From IMG/VR virus record IMGVR_UViG_2585427735_000017: a stretch of 20,470 nucleotides of DNA. The stretch is one strand, 5' to 3'. The DNA is from a virus. Its lineage: Duplodnaviria; Heunggongvirae; Uroviricota; Caudoviricetes. The position numbers were made by a program, and so were the translations under genes. The notes beneath the pieces are model-generated. The model worked only from the letters and a program-made list of their open reading frames with translations, was not told the DNA's origin and ran no database searches. Positions 1,387-20,470 of this stretch are shown in pieces. How positions within the stretch are numbered: position 1 is the first letter of the stretch; the number at the start of each line of letters is the position of its first letter.

Positions 1387-1468
1387 CTACCTTCGGGTGG
1401 CCTTTTTTATTGCTGCGATCCGGATGGTGAGCAGCGTAACTGTCGGAAGACTTAAACCAGGTACTAAT

Positions 1469-2233
1469 ATGAAACTGAAAACGGTCGAGATTAACGGAAA
1501 ACAATACGCAGAAATTGATACTGCTGGCCTGCCAGTTTATGTGCACGACGATGGTAAAGAAATTGGCTTCGATGCACCGCTGGCGACAAAAAAAATTACA
1601 GAGCTTAATGGCGAGGCAAAAAATCATCGCCTGGCTAAAGAAGCTGCAGAGGAAAAACTGGCTAAGTTTGCCGCTATCGAAGACCCGAAGAAGGCGATCG
1701 AGGCACTGGAAATGCTGTCAAAAATCGACCAGAAAAAGCTGCTCGATGCGGGACAGGTTGACCAGGTTAAGGCAGAAATTACGAAAAATTTTCAGCAGCA
1801 ATTAGATGAAGAAAAGCAACGCTCTCAGATGCTGGAGAAGCAGCTTTACGATTCTATGATTGGCGGTAGTTTTGCGGGTTCAAAATATATTGCCGATAAA
1901 ATTGCGATCCCGGCAGATTTATTACAAGCCCGCTTCGGGCAGGCATTCAAAGTGGAAGAAGGGAGGATCGTTGCTTATGACGCTTCCGGCAACAAAATTT
2001 ATTCCCGCGCGAAGCCTGGCGAACTGGCGCAGTTTGATGAGGCGCTGGAGTTCCTTGTCGAAAATTACCCTCAGAAAGACTACATCCTGAAAGCCAGTGG
2101 CAACAATGGCGGCGGCTCCCGTCCGACACAGCATGATATTGGTCAGAAAACGATGAAACGCTCTGCTTTTGATGCACTGGATGTTGCAGGTAAGCAAAAC
2201 GCATTGAAAGACGGTATCACAATCGTTGATTAA
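1469..2233 (+). CDS. Putative head scaffolding protein
   Basis: Lys/Glu-rich 254 aa ORF (MKLKTVEINGKQYAEI...) directly upstream of the major capsid gene. Function inferred from position and composition only. Start uncertain: ATG 1469 chosen; ATG 1424 and GTG 1397 are in frame, and the open frame runs back into the IS4 end. Confidence 0.55.
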   Translation: MKLKTVEINGKQYAEIDTAGLPVYVHDDGKEIGFDAPLATKKITELNGEAKNHRLAKEAAEEKLAKFAAIEDPKKAIEALEMLSKIDQKKLLDAGQVDQVKAEITKNFQQQLDEEKQRSQMLEKQLYDSMIGGSFAGSKYIADKIAIPADLLQARFGQAFKVEEGRIVAYDASGNKIYSRAKPGELAQFDEALEFLVENYPQKDYILKASGNNGGGSRPTQHDIGQKTMKRSAFDALDVAGKQNALKDGITIVD

Positions 2234-2331
2234 CACATTTGTCAGCTTCCGGATGGGAGCTGGTGTCAGGGCTGGATAGCTCATTACTCCATCTATTCAC
2301 AATTACGCAAATTTTTAAGGAATATTTAATT

Positions 2332-3471
2332 ATGGCTGGAAATACCCTGACCGGGTTGATCCCGACTATTTATACCGCCCTGGATGTTGTATCCCGTGAG
2401 CAGGTAGGTTTTATCCCTGCGGTAGCAAAAAACGCAAAAGCTGACGCCGCAGCAAAAGATCAGACGGTAACCGCGCCAGTTGCGCCTGAGGCGAAAACCG
2501 AAGATATCGTACCGGGGCCGTCAGCTCCGAATACCGGTGATCAAAATATTGGCACTGTTGATGTAAAAATTACTAAATCCAAAATGGCACCGGTTAAATG
2601 GAATGGTGAAGAACAACTGGCTCTTGGCCCTTCAGGGACTTACAACACCATTCTGGCTGATCAGTTCAAGCAGGCTTTTCGCGCCCTTGCAAACGAGGTT
2701 GAGGCTGATCTTGGTGCGTTGTATTTCGGTGCTTCCCGCGCCGTGGGAACCGCAGGGACAACGCCGTTTGGTGTTAAAGATGATCTTTCTGATGCTGCTC
2801 TGGCTCGTCAGGTTCTGGAGGATAACGGCGCACCGACAACCGATCTGCAGATGGTGCTTGGCTCCACTGCCATTGCTAATTTGCGCGGAAAACAGTCTGT
2901 ATTGTTTAAAGTGAATGAATCCGGCACTGAACAGCTACTGCGTGAGGGCGTGTTGGGGCGTCTGGAGGGATTCAATATTCACAGTTCGGCAGGTGTGAAA
3001 CGAGCGCCAAAGGTTGCTGCAACTGGTTATCTCGTGAATGGAGAGAAAAAAGAAGGCGATGTTCTTATTTCCATTGATACTGGTTCGGGGAGTATTTCTG
3101 CAGGTCAGATTGTTACGTTCGCTGGTGATCCGAATCAGTATGTTGTGGCAGCAGCGACCAGCAATCTGATTACTCTTGCAGCGCCCGGACTGCGTCAGGA
3201 TCTGGCCGATGATACTGCCATCACAGTTGTTGGGGCCTTTACGGCAAATATGGCGTTTGATCGCAACGCGTTTCTGCTGGCATCCCGTACTCCGGCAATG
3301 CCGGAAGGTGGCGATAATGCTGATGATGTAATGAATGTTACGGACCCGATTTCAGGGATTACGTTCCAGATTGCACTGTATCGTCAGTATCGCCAGGTGC
3401 GCTATGAAGTTGGACTGGCATGGGGTGTTTCATCAGTGAAGCCGGCACATGGTTGTCTGATTCTTGGTTAA
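2332..3471 (+). CDS. Major capsid protein (family not identified)
   Basis: 379 aa ORF starting MAGNTLTGLIPTIY, with AAGGA ribosome-binding site about 10 nt upstream of ATG 2332, followed by a hairpin terminator; placed between scaffold-like and connector genes. The track start at 2239 has no ribosome-binding site. Confidence 0.7.
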   Translation: MAGNTLTGLIPTIYTALDVVSREQVGFIPAVAKNAKADAAAKDQTVTAPVAPEAKTEDIVPGPSAPNTGDQNIGTVDVKITKSKMAPVKWNGEEQLALGPSGTYNTILADQFKQAFRALANEVEADLGALYFGASRAVGTAGTTPFGVKDDLSDAALARQVLEDNGAPTTDLQMVLGSTAIANLRGKQSVLFKVNESGTEQLLREGVLGRLEGFNIHSSAGVKRAPKVAATGYLVNGEKKEGDVLISIDTGSGSISAGQIVTFAGDPNQYVVAAATSNLITLAAPGLRQDLADDTAITVVGAFTANMAFDRNAFLLASRTPAMPEGGDNADDVMNVTDPISGITFQIALYRQYRQVRYEVGLAWGVSSVKPAHGCLILG

Positions 3472-3481
3472 ACATTCAAAC

Positions 3482-3501
3482 GGGGCTTCGGCCCCATTTT
3501 T
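3482..3501 (+). terminator. Hairpin plus T-run after capsid gene (putative attenuator)
   Basis: GGGGC-TTCG-GCCCC stem-loop (5 bp stem, UUCG tetraloop) followed by ATTTTT, 11 nt after the capsid stop. Confidence 0.45.
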
Positions 3502-3513
3502 AATGGGGGGCAT

Positions 3514-3690
3514 ATGGCCGGATTAACTAAAGAGCAAAGAGCACAGCGTGAAGCCGCACAAAAAACGCAAATTGAGTTAGTGGTTATGGTGACCGATTAT
3601 CAGATGTTTCCCGGCGCACCAACTATCGCTAATGTTCATCCTGATGAAGTTGACAACTGGAAGGCTATGGGCTGGAAAACTCAGGAGTAA
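3514..3690 (+). CDS. Small hypothetical protein (58 aa), below the ORF-track cutoff
   Basis: ATG 3514 preceded by GGGGGG (short 3 nt spacer); translates MAGLTKEQRAQREAAQKTQIELVVMVTDYQMFPGAPTIANVHPDEVDNWKAMGWKTQE; exactly fills the gap between the capsid terminator and the next gene, same strand. Confidence 0.4.
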   Translation: MAGLTKEQRAQREAAQKTQIELVVMVTDYQMFPGAPTIANVHPDEVDNWKAMGWKTQE

Positions 3691-3693
3691 CAC

Positions 3694-4089
3694 ATGATCA
3701 CTTACGTGACCTGTGATGACGTTGATAATGCGTTTGGGAACGCCTGGACGAGTGAGAACGCTAAAAATAAAGCTGTTTTAATGGCTAATGCCTGGCTTAA
3801 TGGCTTCAACCTGAAAATTAACCCATCCCGTATTCCGGAAGAGGTAAAACTTGCGGGAGCATATGCAGCCAGAATTGCCTCATTCGGTAAGTTGTTTCAG
3901 CAGAAAAATGATTCTGGCGTTGTTATCAGTAAAGCCGTGTCGGCTGACGGGGTCAGTGTATCGAAATCATTTTCTGAGTTGCCAGCAAACAGCACTGCAT
4001 TGCTTGAACCCGATTTACAGCTTGCGATAGCACTGCTGAAACCGTACGGACTTAGTCGCTCACAAGTCAGGGTTGTGAGGGGGGGATAA
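3694..4089 (+). CDS. Putative head-tail connector / head completion protein
   Basis: 131 aa ORF with AGGAG ribosome-binding site; first of four small translationally coupled ORFs between capsid and tail tube genes. Function inferred from position. Confidence 0.55.
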   Translation: MITYVTCDDVDNAFGNAWTSENAKNKAVLMANAWLNGFNLKINPSRIPEEVKLAGAYAARIASFGKLFQQKNDSGVVISKAVSADGVSVSKSFSELPANSTALLEPDLQLAIALLKPYGLSRSQVRVVRGG

Positions 4090-4472
4090 TGGGGCTTCGT
4101 GAAGAGATTCAGTCAGAGGTTGCCGCTGCTTTTGATGAGGATTTAACGGACGCCGTGAGTGATTTTTCTGGTTCTTACGTTACGCACCGGCACTGGGATC
4201 CTGTGACGGAAACTGGCGGCGAATCCACCGCAATCTATACCGGGCGAGGCGTGTTGACACGTTATAAGCTGGGCAGAATTGATGGGATTAATATTTTGCA
4301 TGGTGACCTTAAATTAACCGCTCTGGTATGCGAGGTTACGGATAAACCAGCTGTCGACCATATTATTGAGATTTATGATCCTGTATCAAGGCAGTTACAA
4401 CGATACGAGGTAATTACAGCAAGTGTAGATCCTTCCGCATCAGTTTACTCTATCCAGTTAAGGAGAGCGTAA
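4089..4472 (+). CDS. Putative head-tail joining protein
   Basis: 127 aa ORF; start overlaps the upstream stop (TAATG); synteny with head-tail joining genes of siphophages. Confidence 0.55.
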   Translation: MGLREEIQSEVAAAFDEDLTDAVSDFSGSYVTHRHWDPVTETGGESTAIYTGRGVLTRYKLGRIDGINILHGDLKLTALVCEVTDKPAVDHIIEIYDPVSRQLQRYEVITASVDPSASVYSIQLRRA

Positions 4473-4853
4473 ATGGCAAAGGCATGGGATATAGAACCGT
4501 CAATATTTGCCGGGATGATTGAGGAAGATGTAGGGCTGAAGATTCGCTACATCGCTATTCAGATTCTTACTGCTATTGATATTGCTGCTCCGGTTGATAC
4601 CGGACGTTTCAGAAATAACAACCTGGTGTCGTTACAGCATCCCGATTTTGGTATATCTGATAACGTGGATCCGAACGGTACGATTGCTGTTCAGCGTGGG
4701 ATCGGGGTTATTTCGAAAGCTGCAAATTACGGAGTTATTTATATCCAGAATAACCTTCCTTATGCAGAGGCTCTTGAAAACGGTCATTCACAACAAGCGC
4801 CAACTGGCGTGTATGCCAACGCTTTTCATGGTGTTTTACAGGCTTACAAATGA
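4473..4853 (+). CDS. Putative tail completion / neck protein (HK97 gp10-like)
   Basis: 126 aa ORF with AAGGAGAG ribosome-binding site; contains a PVDTGRFRNN motif that I recall as typical of the HK97 gp10 family. From memory, unverified. Confidence 0.6.
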   Translation: MAKAWDIEPSIFAGMIEEDVGLKIRYIAIQILTAIDIAAPVDTGRFRNNNLVSLQHPDFGISDNVDPNGTIAVQRGIGVISKAANYGVIYIQNNLPYAEALENGHSQQAPTGVYANAFHGVLQAYK

Positions 4854-5242
4854 CGTTTACTGAAATCAGAAATACGGTTATTTCCAGAATGACGGCACAG
4901 ACGATTATTGATGGAAAAGACGTATTGTATCCGAACGCGCCAACGTTCGATCCTTCCGGTAAGTTAATCTGGGCGCGGTTAAGTAATATTCCCGGGCAGG
5001 CTGGAGTTAATGAAATTGGCGCGGGGCCGATTGTTTATCGCACGGGGATAATCATTATTCAGTTATTTGTCCCCGCAGGTTCTGGTTCAAAACTCATTAC
5101 TGAGACAGCCGATAAATTGCGGGAACTGTTTGAGTTTCAGGATGACGATCGTCTCAGTTACCAGGCTGTTTCCTCAATAGCCGTTGGCGAAAAGAATGGC
5201 TGGTTCCAGCTTAATCTTCAAATTCCATATCGCGCGCTCTAG
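4850..5242 (+). CDS. Putative tail terminator / tail completion protein
   Basis: 130 aa ORF with ATGA start-stop overlap with the upstream gene; sits immediately before the major tail gene, the lambda U-equivalent position. Confidence 0.55.
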   Translation: MTFTEIRNTVISRMTAQTIIDGKDVLYPNAPTFDPSGKLIWARLSNIPGQAGVNEIGAGPIVYRTGIIIIQLFVPAGSGSKLITETADKLRELFEFQDDDRLSYQAVSSIAVGEKNGWFQLNLQIPYRAL

Positions 5243-5268
5243 CGCAATTAATGACATAGGAGGCTCCT

Positions 5269-6231
5269 GTGAGTTCAGGTGCAAAGGTTATCTCGGCATT
5301 TATCCGGGAGACGGTTGCAGGCACTACGCCAGCAAGTGGTGACTGGAGTTTATTAAAACGCACAAGCTGGGGAGTAAAACCCACCCAGAATAAAGGCGAA
5401 AATAATGAGATTGGTGGCTCCCGGATGGCTCAGGGGGCGACGCCTGGCACTGTGGATGTCGGCGGTGATGTTGGTACCAAATTTCGCTGGGGTCAACATG
5501 ATGATTTTCTTGCATCCTGTTTCGGCGCGGAATGGTCAGGCGATTCTCTGACAATGGGGAATGAGCGAATAACATTTTCTCTGGCGACCTATGCGTCCGA
5601 TGTCGGAATTGCCTCTGTCGTCAGAGGAGCGCAGGTTGGCTCATGGAAAATGCAGATCCCTAACGACGGCGATATTACAGTGACCGTAACCTTTGCCGGA
5701 CTGGACTGGGAATCAAAGGCCGATGATACGAATTTTATCAAAGGCGAACCTGTGGATAGTGCAGGAAAGCTACGTTATTCGTTTAAGGAGGTTTCAGCAG
5801 TAAGCCTGAATGGTGTTGCCGGAGGTAACGGTTTTTGTATCGACAGTTTTGATATTCAGTTCGATAACAAACTCCAGACACAGCGTTGTATCGGGACTGG
5901 CTCGCCTTATGCAGGAGCAAATATTCCGACTACTTTTACACCGTCCGGTACGGTGACGCTTTCATGGTCTAAAGCCGCGTGGGAAATCTGGAGTAAAACA
6001 CTGACTGGAGAAACAGTTCCGTTCAGCTTCACGCTTTCGAATGGAGAGGGGGCATACACTTTCAGTTTCCCGAAGGTTCAGGTGTCAGGTGAATGGCCTG
6101 ATGGGGGTAATAGCGACATTATCCAGGTTCAATTGAGCATTACCGCAGCAGATGAAGCACCTACGATAACCAGAAAAAAAAATTCCCCGGCTGCCGTGAT
6201 CGCAAAAGCCAGTGCTGAGGCGATTAGTTGA
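5269..6231 (+). CDS. Major tail (tube) protein
   Basis: 320 aa ORF with GTG start 5 nt after a TAGGAGG ribosome-binding site; lies between the terminator-like gene and the chaperone pair. Not lambda V-like by recollection. Confidence 0.7.
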   Translation: MSSGAKVISAFIRETVAGTTPASGDWSLLKRTSWGVKPTQNKGENNEIGGSRMAQGATPGTVDVGGDVGTKFRWGQHDDFLASCFGAEWSGDSLTMGNERITFSLATYASDVGIASVVRGAQVGSWKMQIPNDGDITVTVTFAGLDWESKADDTNFIKGEPVDSAGKLRYSFKEVSAVSLNGVAGGNGFCIDSFDIQFDNKLQTQRCIGTGSPYAGANIPTTFTPSGTVTLSWSKAAWEIWSKTLTGETVPFSFTLSNGEGAYTFSFPKVQVSGEWPDGGNSDIIQVQLSITAADEAPTITRKKNSPAAVIAKASAEAIS

Positions 6232-6279
6232 TTTTCCGTTATTCCTCCTGTGGTACTGCCCTACAGGGGGACGCATTGA

Positions 6280-6741
6280 ATGAGGTTATGGATGTTTATT
6301 CTTAATCAGAAAATTATCATTGGTGGAGAACGCTGGTTTACGCCAATGAAGGACTTAAAACCTGTAGACGGGTTAAAACTGTTGGTGGCAAGCAGCGATA
6401 ACGATCAGTATCGCTCCCGTAATGCATTAATCCGTCGCCACATTGAGAAAATGGATGCCAGTTTGCACGTCGGAACGAAGGAGTTTGATATTTCAAAGGT
6501 TTCCGAGGTGGATTCTGTTGATGATTTACTCATTGATAATGCCGCTCGTTATCTGCTGAAAGACTGGAAAGGGGTTGGTGAACTGGTTAATGGTGTTGAG
6601 GTTGCACTGGAATATACGGCAGAACGAGGGATCGCGCTGCTTAAGCAGAATCCAGAGTTGTACTGGCAGATCCTTGCAGAAGCAGCCAGCATCGCCCAGG
6701 GTAAAGAGCAGCAGAAGCAGGATACGATAAAAAAGCCATAG
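6280..6741 (+). CDS. Tail assembly chaperone (lambda G analogue)
   Basis: 153 aa ORF ending 4 nt after an A_AAA_AAG slippery heptamer, with the -1 frame open for a further ~100 codons: the conserved G/GT arrangement. An alternative start at ATG 6345 would give 132 aa. Confidence 0.7.
   Translation: MRLWMFILNQKIIIGGERWFTPMKDLKPVDGLKLLVASSDNDQYRSRNALIRRHIEKMDASLHVGTKEFDISKVSEVDSVDDLLIDNAARYLLKDWKGVGELVNGVEVALEYTAERGIALLKQNPELYWQILAEAASIAQGKEQQKQDTIKKP
6729..6735 (+). promoter_or_regulatory. Candidate programmed -1 ribosomal frameshift site (slippery heptamer A_AAA_AAG)
   Basis: AAAAAAG at 6729-6735 is in the X_XXY_YYZ register of the 6280 ORF (codons AAA AAG), 4 nt before its stop TAG 6739-6741; the -1 frame is open from here to 7049. 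Confidence 0.6.
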
Positions 6742-7049
6742 CTGCCCAGCGGTGGTTATCGGAGTTCGGGGGAGAAAGGGGGGAAAAGGCAAGATGGAAG
6801 CGAGAAAAACTCAGGTTGCCACCGATACCGGAACCAGAAATAGACCCGGTGCTTAAGGAGTTGTTGTACGCCTATTCGGTAATATCCCGTGCCCGACGTT
6901 ATGCTGGAATGGCTGGGGTGCCTTTGCCTTTATCTCTGACAGAGATAAATGAATATTTAGCCACTCATCCGGTATTGATTGAGCGCGATGAATTTGAAGC
7001 AGTGATCTTTGCACTGGATGACCAGTATTTTCAGGAGCAGTGTGTGTAG
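6729..7049 (+). CDS. Tail assembly chaperone C-terminal extension (lambda T analogue), expressed as a G-T fusion by -1 frameshift
   Basis: The -1 frame has no stop from 6735 to TAG 7047-7049. The track ORF 6816..7049 begins at a TTG inside this frame and lacks an independent ATG and ribosome-binding site. Confidence 0.55.
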   Translation, partial: KKAIAAQRWLSEFGGERGEKARWKREKLRLPPIPEPEIDPVLKELLYAYSVISRARRYAGMAGVPLPLSLTEINEYLATHPVLIERDEFEAVIFALDDQYFQEQCV

Positions 7050-7169
7050 TTGTTAATTACGTACACTCTGTTACAGAGATGTGATGGTGTCTTTAATTAA
7101 ATCGATGATGCTCCTGGAGAAAAGCATTGCGTGACCTCGTAATCGCTATATCTACTATTATGTCGCCTG

Positions 7170-7194
7170 AAACCCACTTCGCGGTGGGTTTTTT
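7170..7194 (+). terminator. Rho-independent terminator-like hairpin upstream of the tape measure gene
   Basis: AAACCCAC-TTCGCG-GTGGGTTT stem (8 bp) running into TTTTTTG, about 20 nt before the AGGAG ribosome-binding site and ATG 7215. Confidence 0.5.
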
Positions 7195-7214
7195 GTTGTC
7201 AGGAGTTTTAATAA

Positions 7215-7841
7215 ATGGCAGAGCAAACCTCGCGTCTCGCAATAATTATTGATAGCACTGGAGCGAAAAATAATGCTGACAATCTGACCTCCTCATTAGT
7301 CAAAATGACGCAGGCTGGGGAAACTGCTGCAAATAGCGCAGGGAAAGTGACTAAGGCAACAGAAGATGAGAAGAACGCGCTCGCAAAATTAAAAGCAGCT
7401 ATTGATCCAGTTGGTGCCGCAATTGATACTGTCGGTCGACGCTATTCTGAATTAAAGAAATTTTTCGATAAAGGGCTTATTGATAAAGAAGAATATGAAT
7501 TTCTTGTCCGTAAACTTAATGAAACCACAGAGGAATTGAGCGGGGTTGCGCAAGCGCAGAGAGAAGCCGAGAAGGCCGGAAAACTTGCTGCCGCCCAGCA
7601 GGAAGCGCAGGCTCAGGCCTTTCAAAGAATGCTGGACAAGATCGACCCTCTGGCTGCGGCGCTAAGAAATCTTGAACAACAGCATGATGAACTTAATGCT
7701 GCGTTTGCATCCGGGAAAATAAATGGTTCTCAGTTTGAGAATTATAGCCGAAAAATACAGGAAACACGGCGAGAGCTTACCGGAGAGGCTCAGGCAGAGC
7801 GAGAAGCAGCAAAAGCGCATGATGAAGATGCTTTCTCCTGA
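7215..7841 (+). CDS. Tape measure protein, N-terminal coiled-coil segment (frame A), ends in premature stop
   Basis: 208 aa ORF with AGGAG ribosome-binding site; Ala/Glu/Gln/Lys-rich with repeated heptad-like motifs ([18 protein letters not shown] / [17 protein letters not shown]). Overlaps the main tape measure frame by ~120 nt. Confidence 0.6.
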
Positions 7842-10341
7842 AATGTATGAGGAGCTTTCTGGAAAACTTCGTGCTATGCGGAGTGAGCTTGAGGTTACTC
7901 AATCACAATTAAGCAAAACCGGAATGTCGGCAAAACAAACGGCTTTTGCTATGCGCATGTTGCCTGCACAAATGACGGATATTGTTGTTGGGTTGTCCAC
8001 TGGTCAGTCGCCATTTATGGTGTTAATGCAGCAGGGCGGCCAGCTAAAAGATATGTTCGGTGGGATTGGCCCGGCGATCAAAGGTGTAGGTTCTTATGTG
8101 CTGGGATTAATTAATCCTTTTACCCTGGCCGCAGCAGCCGTTGGGGTCTTAGGACTGGCTTACTATAAAGGCTCTCAGGAGCAGGACGAATTTAATAAAT
8201 CTCTTATTCTTACCGGAAATCAGTTGGGGACAACCAGCGGGCAATTGGGCGATATAGCTCAACGTGCCGGGAATGCGGCTGATTCGACAACTGGTGCTGC
8301 GGCGGCAGTATTAAATCAGCTTGTGCGTTCGGGAAAGGTAGCGAGCAGTTCGCTGGAGCAAGTGACGACAGCGATAGTAAAAACGAGCGAAGTAACAGGA
8401 ATATCAACCGAACAACTGGTTAATGACTTCAATGAAATTGCAAAGGATCCTGTCAGTGCCATATCAAAACTTAATGATCAGTACCATTTTCTGACACTTG
8501 CGACTTATAACCAGATTAAGGCGCTACAGGATGAAGGGAACCAGCAGGAGGCCGCCCGCATTGCGACAGAAGAATACTCATCCTCAATGATCCAGCGCAC
8601 CAACCAGATTAAAGAAAATCTTGGTTATCTTGAGACTGCATGGAAAGCTGTCGCAGACTCCGCAAAATGGGCATGGGATTCCATGCTGGATATTGGCCGT
8701 GAGGCCTCCCTTGATCAAAAAATCTCAGATGTTCTCCGTCAAATTGATGAAATAGAAAAAAATCCCCGACCCGGAGTTTTCGGGTTAGGTGGCATTGGAG
8801 ATGGCGGAGCTCAAAATAAAAGGCTGGCACGATTAAAGCAGCAATTGGGCGTACTTCAAGCAGAAAAAATTGCTCAGGACGTACTAAATTCATCAATAAA
8901 CGATTACAACAAGCGACAACAGGAAGGAATTGAACTCAGACAGAGAGCAGATGCCTTTTCAAAACAATATCAGACCCGGGAGCAGCAGAGAGCTAGTGAA
9001 CTTGCAAAACTGGAAAAGCTAAAGAATCAGTATTCAAAGGAAGAATATAATAATCTTATCGCTCAAATAAATGAGCGTTATAAAGATCCAAAGCAACCAA
9101 AGGCGAAAGGTTATTCTGATGATGCAGCCCAACGAATGATTGATCATCTGAATCAACAGAATGCGTTACTAAGTTCACAAGCTGAGTTGACCGTTAAATT
9201 AAGTTCCTCTGAACAGGAACTGGTTAAGTGGCGTCAGCGGATTGCCGACCTAGAGTCACGACCATCATCGAAATTAACCCAGGATCAGAAATCGCTTCTC
9301 TTCCACCGGGAAGAAATAACCGCGTTGATGGAGAAAAATGTTGCGATTGAAAAGAATAACAGGCTAATCAAGGAATCCGCCGAAATAACAGCATGGCGTG
9401 ATTCATTGCAGGCTTCGATTGATAATCGTCAGCAGGGGTATGATATTCAGATTGCTGGTTATGGGGTTGGCGATAAAAATCAGCAACGCCAGCAGGAATT
9501 ACTGCGGATTGAACATGGATATAACAATCAGCGTCTGCAACTTGAACGTGACTATGCAGATAAATCCCGTGGAATGTCAGATCATGTTTTTCAAGAGAAA
9601 ATGCAGGCTCTGAATGATGCTCTGGAACGGGAAAAAGAAATTGTCAGACAGAAAAACGAGCAACTCGATATTCAGGCAGGAGACTGGGTTAGTGGTGCCT
9701 CCCAGGGATTCAATAACTGGCTGGATGACACTAAGGATATCAGTGAGCAGATAAAATCAACCACGACTCAGATGTTTGATGGGATGACCGATGCGCTGGG
9801 TGATTTTGTCACGACAGGCAAGGCAAATTTTCGTTCTTTCGCTACTTCCGTGATTTCGGATCTTAGTCGAATGGCATTAAAGGCTTCAATTACTGGGATT
9901 TTCGACAGCATTAGTAACAGTTCTTCTGGGGGGATTTTAGGAACTATCGGGAGTGCTATTAGTAAATTTATTCCGAATGCAAAGGGCGGTGTTTATGAGT
10001 CTCCGTCATTGAGCACGTATTCGAACGGTATTTATGATTCCCCGCAATTTTTTGCTTTTGCAAAAGGGGCTGGTGTTTTTGGTGAGTCTGGACCGGAAGC
10101 CATTATGCCATTAACACGAACTTCCGATGGTTCTCTTGGTGTCAGAGCTATTAATAGTAAAAGTGGTAATGGAGGCGGAGATATTACCTATGCCCCTGTA
10201 TACCAAATCACTATTCAAAATGACGGCCAGAATGGAGAGATTGGCCCTCAGGCAATAAAAGCACTTATGGGGATGGTTGATCAGCGGGTGCAGGGCAATC
10301 TGTTAAATATGCGACGTGATGGGGGAATATTAAGTGGCTAA
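7723..10341 (+). CDS. H: Tail length tape measure protein (lambda H-like), main frame B
   Basis: 872 aa ORF; [41 protein letters not shown] and the C-terminal [35 protein letters not shown] match recalled lambda H motifs. ATG 7723 is only the first ATG after a stop in this frame; the true N-terminus is probably the 7215 ORF. Confidence 0.85.
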
Positions 10342-10672
10342 TACGGAAGAATTTCACTGGTTACCAGAGGATGGAATGAAAACAGAAAATAAACCATCGA
10401 TAAAAACTGTAAGATTTGGCGATGGTTATGAGCAACGAAGTCCAAATGGACTTAATCATTCTCTGCGCGTTTTCACCTGTGATTTCAAAGTTGAGGCGAA
10501 TGAACGTGATTCATTTGAAAAATTTTTAGCCCGGCATGAAGGCTATAAATCTTTTTTTTGGCGCCCGCCGGGTATTAACAGAAAAATCAGAGTGGTGTGT
10601 CGAACGTGGTCAGCGACAGAACATATCACCTATACAGATTTTTCGTGTCAGTTTGACGAAGTGGTGATCTGA
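10334..10672 (+). CDS. M: Minor tail protein M
   Basis: 112 aa ORF; [10 protein letters not shown]...YKSFFWRP...FDEVV resembles lambda M motifs but the N-terminus diverges. GTG start at 10334 with GGGGGA ribosome-binding site; alternative ATG at 10376. Confidence 0.8.
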
Positions 10673-11370
10673 TGCAGGACATACAACAGGAAACGCTGAA
10701 TGAATGCATTCGTGCGGAGCAGTCGGCCAGCGTGGTGCTCTGGGAAATCGACCTGACCGAGGTAGGCGGGGATCGCTACTTTTTCTGTAATGAGCAGAAC
10801 GAAAAAGGTGAGTCTGTCACCTGGCAGAGTCGGCAGTATCAGGCCTATCCCATTCAGGGGAGTGGATTTGAGATGAACGGCAAGGGCAGTGCTGCCCGTC
10901 CGACACTGACGGTCTCTAACCTGCACGGCATGATCACCGGGATGGCGGAAGATCTGCAGAGTCTGGTCGGCGGAACGGTGGTCCGGCGTAAGGTTTACGC
11001 CCGCTTTCTGGATGCGGTGAACTTCGTCAACGGAAACAGCGAAGCCGATCCGGAGCAGGAGGTGATCAGCCGCTGGCGCATCGAGCAGTGCAGCGAACTG
11101 AGCGCGGTCAGTGCCTCTTTTGTACTGTCCACGCCGACTGAAACGGATGGCGCTGTTTTTCCGGGACGTATCATGCTGGCCAACACCTGCACCTGGACCT
11201 ATCGCGGCGATGAGTGCGGTTATAGCGGTCCGGCGGTCGCGGATGAATATGACCAGCCGACGTCCGATATCACGAAGGATAAATGCAGCAAATGCCTGAG
11301 TGGCTGTAAGTTTCGCAATAATGTCGGCAACTTTGGCAGCTTCCTTTCCATTAACAAACTTTCGCAGTAA
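10672..11370 (+). CDS. L: Minor tail protein L
   Basis: 232 aa; [33 protein letters not shown]...CSKCLSGCKFRNNVGNFGSFLSINKLSQ is near-identical to lambda L as I recall it. Start overlaps the M stop (TGATG). Confidence 0.92.
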   Translation: MQDIQQETLNECIRAEQSASVVLWEIDLTEVGGDRYFFCNEQNEKGESVTWQSRQYQAYPIQGSGFEMNGKGSAARPTLTVSNLHGMITGMAEDLQSLVGGTVVRRKVYARFLDAVNFVNGNSEADPEQEVISRWRIEQCSELSAVSASFVLSTPTETDGAVFPGRIMLANTCTWTYRGDECGYSGPAVADEYDQPTSDITKDKCSKCLSGCKFRNNVGNFGSFLSINKLSQ

Positions 11371-11375
11371 ATCCC

Positions 11376-12119
11376 ATGACAGAGACAGAATCAGCGATTC
11401 TGGCGCACGCCCGGCGATGTGCGCCAGCGGAGTCGTGCGGCTTCGTGGTGAGAACGCCGGAGGAGGAAAGATATTTTCCCTGCGTGAATATCTCCGGTGA
11501 GCCGGAGGCGTATTTCCGGATGTCGCCGGAGGACTGGCTGAGTGCAGAAATGCAGGGAGAGATTGTGGCGCTGGTCCACAGCCACCCCGGTGGTCTGCCC
11601 TGGCTGAGTGAGGCCGACCGGCGGCTGCAGGTACAGAGTGATTTGCCGTGGTGGCTGGTCTGCCGGGGGGCGATTCATAAATTCCGCTGTGTGCCGCATC
11701 TCACCGGGCGGCGCTTTGAGCACGGGGTGACGGACTGTTACACGCTGTTCCGGGACGCTTACCATCTGGCGGGAATTGAGATGCCGGATTTTCATCGCGG
11801 GGATAACTGGTGGCGTCACGGTCAGAATCTCTATCTGGATAATCTGGAGGCCACAGGGCTGTATCAGGTGCCGTTGTCAGCGGCGCAGCCGGGCGATGTG
11901 CTGCTGTGCTGTTTTGGTTCATCGGTGCCGAATCATGCCGCCATTTACTGTGGTGACAGCGAGCTGCTGCACCATATTCCTGAACAACTGAGCAAACGAG
12001 AGAGGTACACCGACAAATGGCAGCGACGCACACACTCCCTCTGGCGTCACCGGGCATGGCACGCATCTGCCTTTACGGGGATTTACAACGATTTGGCCGC
12101 CGCATCGACCTTCGAGTGA
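11376..12119 (+). CDS. K: Tail tip assembly protein K (JAB/MPN plus NlpC/P60 domains)
   Basis: 247 aa ORF; MTETESAILAHARRCAPAESCGFVV...HSHPGGLPWLSEAD (HxHx7Sx2D JAMM motif)...DCYTLF...NHAAIYCGD (NlpC/P60-like Cys/His). The lambda-annotated K start corresponds to ATG 11520 (199 aa) by my recollection of lambda coordinates. Confidence 0.9.
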   Translation: MTETESAILAHARRCAPAESCGFVVRTPEEERYFPCVNISGEPEAYFRMSPEDWLSAEMQGEIVALVHSHPGGLPWLSEADRRLQVQSDLPWWLVCRGAIHKFRCVPHLTGRRFEHGVTDCYTLFRDAYHLAGIEMPDFHRGDNWWRHGQNLYLDNLEATGLYQVPLSAAQPGDVLLCCFGSSVPNHAAIYCGDSELLHHIPEQLSKRERYTDKWQRRTHSLWRHRAWHASAFTGIYNDLAAASTFE

Positions 12120-12664
12120 AAACGGGGTCCGAAGCCATCCGGGCGCTGGCCATGCAGATCCCGGCATTTCGTCAGAAACTGAGCGACGGCTGGTACCAGG
12201 TACGCATTGCCGGGCGTGATGCAGGTGAAACTGAATTGTCTGCCCGTCTTAATGAGCCGCTGGAAAATGGTGCCGTGATCCACATCGTACCGCGTCCGGC
12301 GGGTGCTAAAAGTGGCGGTATTTTTCAGGCAGTGCTGGGGGCGGCGCTGATTGCGGTTGCATGGTGGAACCCTGTGGGCTGGCTGGGGGCCACGGCTGTA
12401 TCGGGTATGTATGCGGCAGGGGCCAGTATGATCCTGGGCGGTGTGGCGCAGATGTTGGCACCGAAAGCCAGGACGCCCACGGCAGCCAGTACAGATAACG
12501 GCAAACAGAACACGTATTTCTCGTCACTGGATAACATGGTTGCCCAGGGCAATGTTCTGCCCGTTCTGTACGGTGAAATGCGCGTGGGGTCGCGGGTGGT
12601 CTCTCAGGAGATCAGCACGGCAGACGAAGGGGATGGTGGTCAGGTTGTGGTGATTGGTCGCTGA
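12017..12664 (+). CDS. I: Tail tip assembly protein I
   Basis: 215 aa; MAATHTLPLASPGMARICLYGDLQRFGRRIDLRVKTG...NVLPVLYGEMRVGSRVVSQEISTADEGDGGQVVVIGR matches lambda I; overlaps the 3' end of K by ~100 nt in another frame, as in lambda. Confidence 0.9.
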   Translation: MAATHTLPLASPGMARICLYGDLQRFGRRIDLRVKTGSEAIRALAMQIPAFRQKLSDGWYQVRIAGRDAGETELSARLNEPLENGAVIHIVPRPAGAKSGGIFQAVLGAALIAVAWWNPVGWLGATAVSGMYAAGASMILGGVAQMLAPKARTPTAASTDNGKQNTYFSSLDNMVAQGNVLPVLYGEMRVGSRVVSQEISTADEGDGGQVVVIGR

Positions 12665-12683
12665 TGAAAAACGTTTTATGTGA

Positions 12684-12703
12684 AACCGCCTCCGGGCGGT
12701 TTT
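12684..12703 (+). terminator. Terminator-like hairpin between I and J (weak)
   Basis: AACCGCC-TCCG-GGCGGTT stem-loop followed by TTTTG, about 20 nt before the J ribosome-binding site. Confidence 0.35.
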
Positions 12704-12721
12704 GTCGTTTATGGAGCGTGA

Positions 12722-16120
<3,399 letters not shown>

Positions 16121-16138
16121 ATTTTATAACCCAGAACG

Positions 16139-16162
16139 GGCGTCAGAAATGACGCCTTTTTT
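16139..16162 (+). terminator. Rho-independent terminator between the J region and lom
   Basis: GGCGTCA-GAAA-TGACGCC (7 bp stem, GAAA loop) followed by TTTTTT. Confidence 0.6.
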
Positions 16163-16186
16163 ATTGCAGAAAAGCGAGAGGTAATT

Positions 16187-16786
16187 ATGCGTAAACTTTA
16201 TGCCGCCATTTTGTCCGCAGCCATTTGTCTGGCCGTATCCGGTGCGCCTGCATGGGCGTCTGAACATCAGTCCACGCTGAGCGCGGGGTATCTTCATGCC
16301 CGGACGAACGTTCCCGGCAGCGATGATCTTAACGGGATTAACGTGAAATACCGTTATGAGTTTACGGACACACTGGGGCTGGTGACGTCATTCAGCTATG
16401 CAGGAGACAAGAATCGCCAGCTTACCCGTTACAGCGATACCCGCTGGCATGAAGATTCCGTGCGTAACCGCTGGTTCAGCGTGATGGCGGGGCCGTCTGT
16501 ACGCGTGAATGAATGGTTCAGCGCGTATGCGATGGCGGGTGTGGCTTACAGCCGTGTGTCGACTTTCTCCGGGGATTATCTCCGCGTAACTGACAACAAG
16601 GGGAAAAAGCACGATGTGCTGACCGGAAATGATGACGGTCGCCACAGCAACACGTCTCTGGCGTGGGGGGCTGGCGTGCAGTTTAACCCGACCGAGTCCG
16701 TGGCCATTGATGTCGCTTATGAAGGTTCCGGCAGTGGCGACTGGCGCACTGACGGTTTCATCGTGGGTGTCGGTTATAAATTCTGA
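16187..16786 (+). CDS. lom: Lom outer-membrane protein (Ail/Lom family beta-barrel)
   Basis: 199 aa; signal peptide [24 protein letters not shown]; C-terminal [23 protein letters not shown] matches the lambda Lom C-terminus; GAGAGG ribosome-binding site. Confidence 0.92.
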
Positions 16787-16812
16787 TTAGCCAGGTAACA
16801 CAGTGTTATGAC

Positions 16813-16839
16813 AGCCCGCCGGTTCAGGCGGGCTTTTTT
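16813..16839 (+). terminator. Rho-independent terminator after lom
   Basis: GCCCGCC-GGTTCA-GGCGGGC stem-loop followed by TTTTTT, ending 11 nt before the stf ATG. Confidence 0.6.
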
Positions 16840-16850
16840 GTGGGGTGAAT

Positions 16851-19800
16851 ATGGCAGTAAAGATTTCAGGTGTACTGAAAGACGGCACAGGAAAACCGGT
16901 ACAGAACTGCACAATCCAGCTGAAAGCAAAACGTAACAGCAACACGGTGGTGGTGAACACGCTGGCCTCAGAAAATCCGGATGAAGCCGGGCGTTACAGT
17001 ATGGACGTTGAGTACGGGCAGTACAGCGTTATTCTGTTGGTGGAGGGATTCCCGCCGTCACATGCCGGGACCATCACCGTGTATGAAGATTCTCAACCCG
17101 GTACGCTGAATGATTTTCTCGGTGCCATGACGGAGGATGATGCCCGTCCGGAGGCACTGCGACGTTTTGAACTGATGGTGGAAGAGGTGGCGCGTAACGC
17201 GTCCGCGGTGGCACAGAACACAGCAGCCGCGAAGAAGTCAGCCAGCGATGCCAGCACATCAGCCCGTGAGGCGGCAACCCATGCGACTGATGCTGCAGGC
17301 TCAGCACGCGCAGCCAGCACGTCAGCCGGACAGGCCGCGTCGTCGGCTCAGTCAGCGTCTTCCAGCGCAGGAACGGCATCAGCAAAGGCCACTGAAGCAT
17401 CAAAAAGTGCTGCCGCTGCAGAGTCCTCAAAAAGCGCGGCGGCTACCAGTGCCGGTGCGGCGAAAACGTCAGAAACGAATGCGGCAGCGTCACAACAATC
17501 AGCAGCCACTTCTGCATCCACCGCGACCACGAAAGCGTCAGAAGCAGCCACTTCAGCACGGGATGCGTCGGCTTCAAAAGAGGCGGCAAAATCATCAGAA
17601 ACGAACGCAGCCTCGAGCGCCAGCAGCGCAGCTTCCTCGGCTACGGCGGCAGGAAATTCCGCGAAGGCGGCAAAAACGTCCGAGACGAACGCCAGGTCTT
17701 CTGAAACGGCAGCGGAACAGAGTGCCTCCGCAGCAGCAGGCTCAAAAACAGCGGCTGCGTCGTCTGCCAGTGCCGCGTCAACAAGTGCCGGGCAGGCCTC
17801 AGCCAGTGCCACCGCCGCCGGAAAATCGGCAGAAAGCGCCGCATCGTCTGCTTCAACAGCCACAACGAAGGCTGGCGAAGCCACTGAACAGGCCAGCGCA
17901 GCAGCGAGGTCTGCTTCCGCAGCGAAGACATCCGAAACGAATGCGAAAGCGTCGGAAACCAGTGCAGAATCCTCAAAAACGGCAGCCGCATCGTCCGCCA
18001 GTTCGGCGGCGTCATCGGCATCATCTGCGTCTGCTTCAAAAGATGAGGCGACCAGACAAGCGTCAGCAGCGAAGGGCAGCGCCACGACAGCATCCACGAA
18101 GGCGACAGAGGCAGCTGGCAGTGCGACGGCGGCAGCACAGAGCAAAAGTACGGCGGAATCCGCGGCAACGCGCGCTGAGACAGCGGCAAAACGGGCAGAG
18201 GATATTGCATCCGCCGTGGCGCTTGAGGATGCGAGCACGACGAAAAAGGGGATAGTACAGCTCAGCAGTGCGATCGACAGCACTTCCGAGTCACTGGCGG
18301 CAACGCCAAAAGCAGTTAAGGCCGCGTATGACCTGGCTAACGGGAAATACACCGCACAGGATGCAACGACAGCACAGAAAGGGATAGTCCAGCTAAGCAG
18401 CGCGACCAACAGCACGTCTGAAACGCTGGCGGCAACGCCAAAGGCAGTAAAAGCAGCCAATGACAATGCTGAGAAACGTCTGCAGAAAGATCAGAACGGT
18501 GCGGATATCCCTGGCAAAGACACCTTTACGAAAAATATTGGTGCCAGCCGTGCCTTCGGTGGGTCAGTAAGCACAACAACAGGAGACTGGACGACTGCAC
18601 AGTTTATCGAGTGGCTGGATTCTCAGGGAGCATTTAACCATCCATACTGGATGTGCAAGGGTTCCTGGTCTTATGGCAATAATAAAATCATTACTGATAC
18701 TGGCTGCGGTAATATTCATCTCGCCGGAGCTGTCATTGAAGTAATGGGGATAAAGTCAGCGATGACGATCCGCATTACCACACCGACCACCTCCACTGGT
18801 GGTGGAACAACTAACGCCCAGTTTACCTATATTAATCACGGAACAGATTATTCACCTGGCTGGCGAAGGGACTATAACTCCAGAAATAAGCCAACGGCAT
18901 CAGAGATCGGGGCGTTACCGTCAGGTGGAACAGCAGTATCATCAGTTAATCTGGCTTCAAAAGGTCGGGTAATCGCGCTGACAGACAATACGCAGGGGGC
19001 AACAGGTCTTGAGTTATACGAGGTGTATAACAACGGATATCCAACAGCGTATGGAAATATCATTCACCTGAAAGGGATGACAGCCGTTGGCGAAGGTGAG
19101 TTACTCATCGGCTGGAGTGGTACAAGCGGTGCTCATGCTCCGGCATTTATTCGTTCACGACGGGATACGACCGACGCAAACTGGTCGCCGTGGGCGCAGC
19201 TTTACACCTCAGCTCATCCTCCTGCAGAGTTTTATCCAGTCGGTGCACCAATCCCGTGGCCATCAGATACCGTTCCGTCTGGCTATGCCCTGATGCAGGG
19301 GCAGACTTTTGACAAATCTGCTTACCCGAAACTTGCAGCCGCTTATCCGTCAGGCGTGATCCCTGATATGTGTGGCTGGACGATTAAGGGCAAACCTGCC
19401 AGTGGTCGAGCCGTATTATCTCAGGAACAGGACGGCATTAAATCGCACACCCACAGCGCCAGCGCATCCAGTACGGATTTGGGGACGAAAACCACATCGT
19501 CGTTTGATTACGGCACTAAATCCACGAATAACACCGGGGCACATACACACAGTGTGAGCGGCTCTACAAACTCGGCTGGAGCACACACACACTCACTAGC
19601 CAACGTGAACACGGCTAGTGCTAACTCCGGTGCTGGTAGTGCATCAACAAGATTGTCTGTTGTGCATAATCAAAACTATGCAACATCATCTGCTGGCGCA
19701 CATACCCACTCACTGTCCGGCACTGCTGCAAGCGCAGGTGCACACGCACATACTGTCGGTATTGGTGCTCATACGCACTCCGTTGCGATTGGTTCACATG

Positions 19801-19886
19801 GACACACCATCACCGTTAACGCTGCTGGTAACGCGGAAAACACCGTCAAAAACATCGCATTTAACTATATTGTGAGGCTTGCATAA
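16851..19886 (+). CDS. stf: Side tail fibre protein Stf
   Basis: About 1011 aa; N-terminal [30 protein letters not shown], long Ala/Ser/Thr-rich repeat region, tandem KGIVQLSS...ATPKAVKAA repeats, and a C-terminal array of GAHTHS (HxH) motifs ending [12 protein letters not shown], as I recall for lambdoid Stf/StfR. ATG 16851 preferred over the track GTG 16845. Confidence 0.9.
18246..18479 (+). repeat. Tandem 132 nt (44 aa) repeat inside stf (about 1.8 copies)
   Basis: [44 protein letters not shown] followed by [34 protein letters not shown]; the copies start 132 nt apart (18246 and 18378). Confidence 0.7.
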
Positions 19887-20470
19887 TGGCATTCAGAATG
19901 AGTGAACAACCACGGACCATAAAAATTTATAATCTGCTGGCCGGAACTAATGAATTTATTGGTGAAGGTGATGCATATATTCCGCCTCATACAGGTCTGC
20001 CAGCAAACAGTACCGATATTGCACCGCCAGATATTCCGGCAGGCTTCGTGGCTGTTTTCAACAGTGATGAGGCATCGTGGCATCTCGTTGAAGATCATCG
20101 GGGAAAAACCGTCTATGACGTGGCTTCCGGCGACGCGTTATTTATTTCTGAACTTGGCTCGTTACCGGAAAATGTCACCTGGTTATCGCCGGAAGGGGAA
20201 TATCAGAAGTGGAACGGCACAGCCTGGGTGAAGGATACGGAAGCAGAAAAACTGTTCCGGATCCGGGAGGCGGAAGAAACAAAAAACAGCCTGATGCAGG
20301 TAGCCAGTGAGCATATAGCGCCACTTCAGGATGCTGTAGATCTGGAGATCGCAACGGAGGAAGAAACCTCATTGCTGGAAGCCTGGAAAAAATATCGGGT
20401 GTTGCTGAACCGTGTTAATACAACAACTGCACCGGATATTGAATGGCCAACAGTACCCATTATCGAATAG
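19886..20470 (+). CDS. tfa: Tail fibre assembly protein Tfa
   Basis: 194 aa; [79 protein letters not shown]... matches lambda Tfa by recollection; the start overlaps the stf stop (TAATG) and the stop is the last codon of the window. Confidence 0.92.

Follow-up and report, generated by a model that had tools for sequence, protein, structure and literature searches.

Gene content of the locus

The stretch of DNA analysed here, hereafter the window, comprises 20,470 nucleotides of the IMG/VR virus record IMGVR_UViG_2585427735_000017, begins inside an IS4 element and ends at the stop codon of tfa. The partial IS4, whose transposase is encoded on the minus strand, occupies positions 1 to 1386 and is 99.3-99.6% identical to annotated IS4 copies, with a 446-codon open frame on that strand and the element end (...GATCGGCATTA) at position 1386. 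IS4 copies matching this segment occur in more than 1700 E. coli genomes, and every Rac-like relative of the window begins to match at position 1387; the element interrupts or truncates the prophage upstream of its scaffold gene.

The prophage genes, all on the plus strand, form a left module that runs from the head genes to gene M and a right module that runs from L to tfa. The left module encodes a scaffold-like protein (1397-2233; Pfam DUF6651 and RefSeq annotation of relatives), a P22-type major capsid protein (2239-3471; Pfam P22_CoatProtein), four small head-tail connector ORFs, the last of which is the tail terminator (3694-5242; Pfam Phage_tail_terminator_5 and RefSeq annotation of relatives), and a tail tube protein (5269-6231; Pfam Phage_tube_2). 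A YdaY-like tail assembly chaperone ORF (6280-6741), annotated as ydaY in relatives and with a homologue in C. sedlakii that matches Pfam Phage_YdaY, is followed by a second chaperone ORF in the -1 frame (6816-7049) with a weak match to Phage_TAC_18, and the two are probably joined as a frameshift fusion. The tape measure gene (7215-10341; Pfam TMP_2, TMP_4 and Tape_meas_lam_C) is AT-rich, as is the module as a whole, whose last gene is a Rac-type M for the distal tail protein (10334-10672; Pfam Phage_min_tail, E 1e-31) with a GC content of 0.41 and 46% nucleotide identity to lambda M.

The right module consists of L (10672-11370; Pfam Phage_tail_L), K (11376-12119; Pfam Prok-JAB and NLPC_P60) and I (12017-12664; Pfam Lambda_tail_I), which together (10672-12664) have a GC content of 0.56-0.60, followed by J for the central tail fibre and host specificity (12725-16120; J-domain Pfam matches), a lom-like gene (16187-16786; annotated Ail/Lom in relatives), the side tail fibre gene stf (16845-19886; annotated tail fibre in relatives) and tfa (19886-20470; annotated tfaR in relatives). 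The families of M, L, K, I and J are all present and in lambda order (PF05939; PF05100; PF14464 and PF00877; PF06805; PF24801, PF13550, PF24421, PF24489 and PF09327).

Several lesions mark this copy of the prophage. A 107-nt deletion at 7826/7827, recognised by comparison with M8, C2, SPF_0923, S. flexneri and E. ruysiae, splits the tape measure gene and shifts its frame. In J, single nucleotides are missing at about 15704, 15939 and 15953 by comparison with C2 and SPF_0923, and these three 1-nt deletions bring about a premature stop at 15776. The tape measure frameshift and the J deletions may be sequencing errors. As they stand, the disrupted J and the frameshifted tape measure gene do not make up an intact gene set for a functional tail tip, and together with the IS4 insertion they flag this prophage copy as degraded or defective.

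Identity to lambda and base composition change together at the M/L boundary

A sensitive blastn comparison (word size 7) aligned lambda with the window in a single segment of 5,083 nt at 92.3% identity, covering positions 10650-15694, and returned no lambda match to the left of 10650; the same starting position was obtained with megablast. Nucleotide identity to lambda across the junction, which the preliminary description had named as a check, is therefore undetectable by this search up to 10650 and forms a 92% block to the right of it. Per 100-nt bin, identity to lambda lies between 0.29 and 0.59 through 10699 and then between 0.80 and 1.00, save for a patch in gene I, an abrupt change at a definable point of the kind that marks a mosaic junction.

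Base composition changes at the same place. The GC content per 500-nt window is 0.42-0.44 across 8751-10750 and 0.56-0.61 across 10751-12500, and the maximum-likelihood single change point of this step from 0.44 to 0.58 falls at 10711 (2-lnL support interval from approximately 10663/10674 to 10726; lnL gain 47-75). Third-position GC rises from 0.34 (M) to 0.67 (L). The shift from AT-rich to GC-rich sequence that had been noted by eye is thus borne out by sliding windows and change-point analysis (0.416 in 8751-9250 and 0.600 in 11501-12000), and the GC discontinuity coincides with the identity breakpoint, as at a mosaic junction.

The proteins encoded on the two sides differ accordingly in their relation to lambda. 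The scaffold, capsid, connector, tube and chaperone ORFs gave no lambda match in tblastn searches at E<0.1, in agreement with the earlier view that the proteins from scaffold to tube are unlike those of lambda, and M, described as M-like yet divergent, proved to be so (42% amino acid identity over 105 residues, within the Pfam family given above). The tape measure had been credited with short shared motifs only; this needs correction, as its sequence identifies it as a distant, full-length homologue of lambda H (28% identity over 853 aa, E 7e-75). To the right of the boundary, identity to the lambda protein is 93.5% for L, 95.5% for K, 77.6% for I, 95.6% for J (aa 1-1006), 46% for the lom product and 94.8% for Tfa.

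The claim that everything from L onward is nearly identical to lambda holds for L, K, the first 1006 residues of J and tfa, but not for I, for the C-terminus of J past 15694, for lom or for the middle of stf. Gene I contains a non-lambda patch at about 12200-12500 that is 57% identical to lambda and 87% identical to a C. sedlakii prophage, J is lambda-like until 15694, where the lambda alignment ends, and then continues as a different allele, and stf is itself a mosaic (81, 51 and 71% identical to lambda in successive parts, the middle being the 51% part). The right module is a patchwork whose only lambda-like portions are 10650-15694, the gene I patch excepted, and parts of stf and tfa.

The parent switch lies at the end of M and the start of L

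To locate the switch, we used as parental proxies lambda and L006, a metagenomic relative of the left module. Across 338 informative sites the switch between parents falls between 10668 and 10689 (maximum chi-square 206, a value reached in 0/2000 permutations), the ratio of L006-type to lambda-type sites being 142:22 left of the switch and 15:159 right of it. The run of left-parent-type sites ends at 10668, with stragglers at 10685 and 10686, and an unbroken lambda-type run begins at 10689, so that the switch interval takes in the final 3-12 nt of M and ~17 nt at the start of L, together with the TGATG stop/start overlap; the crossover interval that we derive is 10660-10689. The window is 82% identical to L006 on the left and 63-74% in L, whereas its identity to lambda rises from 45% on the left to 89-96% in L. 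Identity at four-fold degenerate sites follows the same course, being 0.22 in the tape measure gene, 0.35 in M, 0.80 in L and 0.89 in J in the comparison with lambda, and 0.53, 0.51, 0.35 and 0.52, respectively, in the comparison with L006. The closest relative therefore differs by side, synonymous sites included, as expected of a mosaic junction, and this reversal in the order of relatedness upholds the earlier proposal of a junction inside M or at its end.

The crossover lies inside a conserved patch (10650-10700) that the alignments show to be common to all M/L types and that encodes the M C-terminal motif F-(D/E)-(E/Q)-V-V, the TGATG overlap and the L N-terminus MQDIxQET. It is short: the M-side part spans ~23 nt with roughly 80% identity, and the L-side part ~30 nt with 83%. 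In a comparison limited to the late region, this patch of ~23-50 nt at roughly 80% adjoins a wider left flank with 45-50% identity to lambda. De Paepe et al. (2014) recognise an 'HR trace' where the flank adjoining a mosaic is at least 10 points above the genome background identity; within the late region an extended trace in this sense is not visible, the 2-kb left flank being ~45-50% identical to lambda. Equally conserved patches also lie inside M, for example the RFGDGY region at about 10412-10440, and microhomology alone therefore fails to explain why the seam sits at a gene boundary. At the junction we found no direct or inverted repeats, promoter- and terminator-like matches were at the level of shuffled sequence, and no Rfam families were found near the seam.

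The seam is shared by the whole Rac-like prophage family

SPF_0923 and hundreds of E. coli prophages match the window at 97-99% identity over 1387-20458. Uniform identity to a single known phage had been named beforehand as an observation that would speak against a junction, and formally such identity exists, but these records carry the same seam, which is thus ancestral to the family, not absent. Of 5426 complete E. coli genomes, 715 contain it and 721 contain the left side; a left side lacking the seam is essentially absent from E. coli, the exception being strain HeN100, where a truncated remnant is left. The seam also occurs in S. flexneri and E. ruysiae, so that the junction is reproduced in independent genomes and is common to the whole Rac-like prophage family, not particular to the window. 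It is old and fixed, having arisen before the family became distributed across Escherichia and Shigella.

When one genome per species was scanned, the Rac-type M turned up in Escherichia and Shigella only, and no further parental forms came to light. Among phage records we found no unrecombined parent of the left module, the range of M identities between 99% and about 51% being empty; a search of 5.8 billion proteins recovered L006 and the C. sedlakii prophage as left-module relatives (83% and 75% amino acid identity in M, respectively). Every lambda-type sequence found differs from the right block by 5-8%, and none of them is identifiable as the actual donor. Four M types, 46-60% identical to one another, are each joined to one L type (89-97% identity), and every transition maps to the interval from -25 to +60 relative to the L start codon. 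Because four M types are joined to a single lambda-type L, we conclude that the M/L boundary is a recurrent exchange zone.

Origin of the junction

These data show that the fusion stems from an old recombination event involving two lambdoid genomes that had diverged but kept their synteny. The window is very probably the late operon of a Rac-family lambdoid prophage in which two ancestries were fused at M/L by an old crossover at about 10660-10689, with short-homology exchange as the likely route. The left parent would have contributed an AT-rich module with the P22-type capsid, tail tube, chaperone, tape measure and M, and the right parent a GC-rich module with the lambda-type tail-tip hub of L, K, I and most of J. 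A Rac-type genome may have gained the lambda-type tip, or else the left module may have entered a lambda-type genome.

An account without recombination, in which stronger functional constraint alone sets L, K, I and J apart from the tape measure and M, and codon usage that varies by gene accounts for the GC difference, could appeal to the wide conservation of tail-tip hub proteins among lambdoid phages and to L alleles that cluster at ~90% identity across several phage types. We consider it extremely improbable. At four-fold degenerate sites, where protein constraint does not act, identity to lambda climbs across the seam from 0.22-0.35 (saturated) to 0.80-0.89, L006 shares the gene order and shows no GC step at M/L, and the order of relatedness reverses, L006 being closer on the left and lambda on the right; as this rank reversal extends to synonymous sites, rate variation cannot explain the pattern, and rate heterogeneity is ruled out. 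That reads from two prophages of one genome were joined during assembly or scaffolding is less credible still: E. coli genomes do hold several lambdoid prophages with near-identical L-J regions (at a median of 2 places per genome), which can mislead assemblers, but the identical seam in 715 complete genomes from many laboratories, in records of induced phages, in S. flexneri and in E. ruysiae rules out such an artefact.

A less remote but still improbable competitor is illegitimate, non-homologous joining at a random position followed by selection (the 'random joining plus selection' of Hendrix), the product being kept only because a junction between genes leaves both proteins intact and compatible; in this account the conserved patch would be mechanistically irrelevant. 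The almost complete lack of nucleotide similarity to lambda in the left flanks of the seam, the coincidence of the junction with a gene boundary and a structural interface, and the slightly different switch points of the three other M types (up to +60) agree with it. Against it, the crossover interval lies inside the sole stretch near the boundary that is common to all types, the genomes are syntenic and in register without an indel at the seam, as expected of homology-guided exchange and improbable for random joining, and phage recombinases have been shown to build such mosaics from diverged sequences (PMC3945230).

For the recombination favoured here, the exchange most likely took place within the ~35-50-nt stretch that is still similar between otherwise dissimilar genomes, where coding for the conserved ends of both proteins (M C-terminus, L N-terminus) maintains the similarity. 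Phage recombinases of the Rad52 type, such as Red-beta or Rac RecT, would most likely have carried out the exchange by 'relaxed' recombination at short homology; relaxed homologous recombination by these enzymes generates lambdoid mosaics from diverged sequences (PMC3945230). The recombinant may have survived as the seam is a structural interface: the gpM ring contacts the tube and gpL/gpJ (PMC10721106), and since the six-fold M ring joins the tube to the three-fold L/J hub, tube, tape measure and M would form one co-adapted unit and L-K-I-J another. The mechanism is not readable from one old seam, and the patch is conserved for coding reasons regardless of any use in recombination. It is a tentative and rather doubtful idea that the M-end/TGATG/L-start stretch of ~35-50 nt serves as a recombination 'linker' used repeatedly by Red-beta or Rac RecT to swap tail-tip hubs; if so, lambdoid phages in general would exchange host-range modules preferentially at the M/L boundary, which would then be more than one selected survivor among many.

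Lambdoid mosaicism at gene boundaries and the homology between Rac and lambda tail genes are long established, and the seam is an ordinary recombination junction in a common E. coli Rac-type prophage. Its analysis locates the switch of tail ancestry in the Rac family, coincident with the interface between the M ring and the L/J hub, offers a tidy example of how phages evolve by modules and gives a hint of the place at which lambdoid phage engineering could exchange tail-tip (host-range) modules. It has little importance beyond annotation and opens no new question, and the prophage copy itself is one flagged as defective.

Comparison with known systems

The relatives of the window occupy the locus of Rac and Rac-like prophages (K-12 Rac, Sp10, CP-933R and the inducible 'KingRac'): those that are 97-99% identical sit between trkG and pinR/ydfK/uspF/ompN, and relatives of 98-99% identity are found at this ttcA/Rac locus; the window's own flanks lie outside the stretch. 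The window also has the late genes expected of Rac, namely ydaY, the tape measure, a lom-type gene, stf and tfaR, with 97-99% nucleotide identity to regions annotated ydaY, tape measure, Ail/Lom and tfaR. By its annotation, K-12 Rac retains little of this region and is without M-L-K-I-J, so that K-12 itself does not carry the seam. Compared with K-12 Rac the window copy is more complete, yet it is damaged by IS4, the tape measure deletion and the J frameshifts. Full-length, particle-forming Rac-like phages are classed as lambdoid (PMC6731689; PMC4632033), and Rac encodes RecET (PMC3945230).

The window resembles the M-L-K-I-J region of lambda in its identical gene order and Pfam families and in the 94-96% identity of L, K, J aa 1-1006 and tfa. 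It is unlike lambda in its unrelated heads and tube and its divergent M (42%) and tape measure (28%), and also in the C-terminal half of I, the receptor-binding end of J, lom (46%) and the middle of stf. As in the mosaics of De Paepe et al. (2014; PMC3945230), a block of more than 90% identity ends sharply at a gene boundary with short residual similarity; in the late region, however, no extended HR trace is visible, and the seam is old, its block being 5-8% diverged from all lambda-type relatives found, unlike their 'recent mosaics'. Further parallels are tails of the mEp460/cdtI and ECE218 types, in which a non-lambda M and tape measure are likewise joined to the same lambda-type L (89-91% nucleotide identity). 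They have M genes of different types, with 47-56% identity to that of the window, and their switch lies within ~60 nt of the L start codon, high lambda identity resuming only at about +60. In mEp460 a 10-nt spacer separates M from L, whereas in the window the two genes are linked by the TGATG overlap.

Identity of the prophage and its genes

From 1387 to 20458 the window is 97-99% identical to prophages found in hundreds of E. coli genomes, and a few records deposited as 'phage' match it too; the E. coli genomes that cover 80% or more of the window number 329. In the annotated relatives, E. coli strains M8 and C2 and 'Salmonella phage SPF_0923' (ON032529.1), the region is flanked by trkG and pinR/ydfK/uspF/ompN and contains ydaY and tfaR, and their locus is the Rac prophage locus. 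Published examples of full-length, inducible Rac-like phages, grouped with the lambdoid phages, include KingRac (PMC6731689) and the Rac-like prophages of PMC4632033. SPF_0923 was deposited as a complete phage genome and includes trkG, sitABCD, uspF, ompN and part of nifJ; since these genes belong to the chromosome around the Rac locus, the record resembles a stretch of prophage rather than a packaged phage genome. Assignment of the window's ORFs with Pfam yielded a scaffold-like protein (DUF6651), a P22-type coat protein, a tail terminator, a tail tube (Phage_tube_2), the tape measure (TMP_2, TMP_4, Tape_meas_lam_C), M (Phage_min_tail), L (Phage_tail_L), K (JAB and NlpC/P60), I (Lambda_tail_I), J (five J domains), Ail/Lom, a side tail fibre and a tail fibre assembly protein. 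An Rfam match to IS009 (RF02111; 225 bits versus a gathering score of 117) lies at 20229-20427 on the plus strand, wholly inside tfa.

Identity to lambda and base composition step together at the M/L boundary

Sensitive blastn found no similarity to lambda left of 10650 and a single 5,083-nt alignment at 92.3% identity over 10650-15694, beyond which lambda matches were patchy, in lom, stf and tfa. Forced global alignment gave 100-nt bins with 0.29-0.59 identity to lambda as far as 10699 and with 0.80-1.00 beyond that point, 12200-12500 in gene I being the exception on the right (0.57). GC content per 500-nt window was 0.42-0.44 at 8751-10750 and 0.56-0.61 at 10751-12500; a binomial single-change-point fit placed the change at 10711 (2-lnL support ~10663-10726), with mean GC of 0.44 ahead of it and 0.58 past it, and GC3 was 0.34 in M and 0.67 in L. 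Both steps are real and coincide to within ~60 nt, which bears out the preliminary description of a mosaic junction at 10334-10700.

The gene-by-gene comparison modified that description. None of the head, connector, tube or chaperone proteins matches lambda in protein comparison, and M is 42% identical, but the tape measure, said to share only short motifs with lambda, proves to be homologous, if distantly, to lambda H over its full length (28% identity over 853 aa, E 7e-75). The portrayal of everything from L onward as near-lambda holds for L (93.5% protein identity), K (95.5%), J (aa 1-1006, 95.6%) and tfa (94.8%), but the block stops within J, at 15694, lom reaches no more than 46% identity, stf is itself mosaic (81, 51 and 71% in three segments), and gene I (77.6%) has in its C-terminal half, at 12200-12500, a patch closer to a Citrobacter sedlakii prophage (87%) and a metagenomic contig, L006 (77-79%), than to lambda (57%). 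This patch is a second small mosaic piece within the 'lambda-like' block. Past 15694, the J C-terminus is an allele distinct from those of lambda and strain M8, matching C2 and SPF_0923.

The seam is a recombination junction

Two more relatives of the window's M were recovered from a large protein collection, one on the 9.2-kb contig L006 (83% identity) and one in the C. sedlakii prophage (75%), both with the order M-L-K-I-J. L006 is the decisive relative for the recombination question: its M is AT-rich as in the window, and so is its L (0.38 to 0.44), which leaves no GC step. Over the 3' end of the tape measure gene and M, the window is ~82% identical to L006 and ~45% to lambda; over L, it is 63-74% identical to L006 and 89-96% to lambda. 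With L006 and lambda standing in for the parental sequences, M and L offered 338 informative sites, which divided into 142 L006-like and 22 lambda-like sites left of the best breakpoint and 15 and 159, respectively, right of it (maximum chi-square 206, reached in 0 of 2000 permutations). Sites of L006 type occur in runs as far as 10668 and then as two stragglers (10685 and 10686); an unbroken run of lambda-type sites begins at 10689, so that the switch falls around the TGATG overlap of the M stop codon (10670-10672) and the L start codon (10672-10674).

We also considered that a difference in protein constraint, and hence in rate, could have produced the step. At four-fold degenerate sites, however, the window matches lambda at 0.22 in the tape measure gene, 0.35 in M, 0.80 in L and 0.89 in J, and L006 at 0.53, 0.51, 0.35 and 0.52, respectively. 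The order of relatedness thus flips at synonymous sites across the seam, which a difference in constraint cannot bring about, and rate variation was rejected. We conclude that the M/L seam is a genuine mosaic junction, statistically unambiguous and precisely mapped, at which two syntenic, diverged lambdoid late operons recombined in register.

Age, distribution and recurrence of exchange at M/L

A 1-kb probe spanning the seam was at least 80% covered in 715 of 5426 complete E. coli genomes and the left side alone was found in 721, so the left module essentially never occurs without the seam in E. coli. Shigella flexneri and Escherichia ruysiae carry the same seam, with identical 30 nt on each side. 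This recurrence excludes an assembly artefact and dates the event to before the family spread. None of the lambda-type sequences found is closer than ~95% to the right block, so none of them can be named as the donor, and the event is not a recent one. Uniform identity to a single known phage, which had been proposed as evidence against a junction, is formally what SPF_0923 and many prophages display; as they carry the same seam, that test is ill-posed.

The right side only was found in ~3,500 further genomes, with matches beginning at 10650, 10661, 10669 or 10720. Among representatives, four M gene types (Rac, lambda, ECE218 and mEp460/cdtI), 46-60% identical to one another in nucleotide sequence, are all joined to a single L type (89-97%), and for each the rise in identity to lambda falls between -25 and +60 nt relative to the L start codon. 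A short conserved stretch common to all types codes for the C-terminus of M (F-D/E-E/Q-V-V) and the N-terminus of L (MQDIxQET). The M/L boundary is thus a recurrent exchange zone. The C. sedlakii prophage has more seams, ~160 nt ahead of the M start and near the L end, so mosaicism of the operon is pervasive and the M/L junction is not the sole one. The tape measure of this prophage is unrelated to that of the window until ~160 nt ahead of the M start, and KilA-N, Arc/RHH, P22_AR_N and ANT-domain genes (its positions 3225-7047) lie between its tail chaperone and tape measure genes.

State of this copy

Positions 1-1386 are a partial IS4, with the transposase on the minus strand. At 1386/1387 it meets intergenic prophage sequence that precedes the scaffold gene, and a terminator-like hairpin (CTACCTTCGGGTGGCCTTTTTTATTG) lies beside this boundary. 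With IS4 copies at unrelated loci of other genomes, the match extends 27-30 nt beyond the IS4 end, which suggests either that they have a target sequence in common or that a longer variant of the element exists. A 107-nt deletion at 7826/7827, seen against M8, C2, SPF_0923, S. flexneri and E. ruysiae, frameshifts the tape measure gene and splits it into two overlapping ORFs in different frames (7215-7841 and 7723-10341); several vB_EcoS records have two annotated tape-measure CDSs. The receptor-binding end of J has three separate 1-nt deletions (~15704, ~15939 and ~15953), none in a homopolymer run, which put ~83 codons out of frame, with a stop at 15776-15778; at a net -3, the frame is regained for the last ~55 codons, with stop codons in between. 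The J deletions reflect either pseudogenisation or sequencing error. Unless the tape-measure and J lesions are sequencing errors, this copy is predicted to be unable to make tails.

Proposed mechanism

The exchange most likely proceeded through the short conserved M/L patch as a substrate of relaxed short-homology recombination, which has been shown experimentally for Red-beta and Rac RecT between lambda and defective prophages (PMC3945230). The main rival, less likely but compatible with the sequence, is illegitimate joining followed by selection for the product that fell at a gene boundary. That the junction is in register and within the sole shared patch favours guidance by homology; that no extended 'HR trace' flanks the junction, and that M contains similar conserved patches of its own, argues for a part played by selection as well. 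The product was probably viable because its seam falls at a structural interface: gpM of the lambda virion is a hexameric ring whose beta-sandwich face docks on the tube and whose E-loops touch the three-fold gpL/gpJ ring (PMC10721106). The tube, tape measure and M would thus make up one co-adapted block and L-K-I-J a second, each able to move as a whole. The M/L seam is a textbook case of modular evolution among lambdoid phages, in a prophage that is very common.
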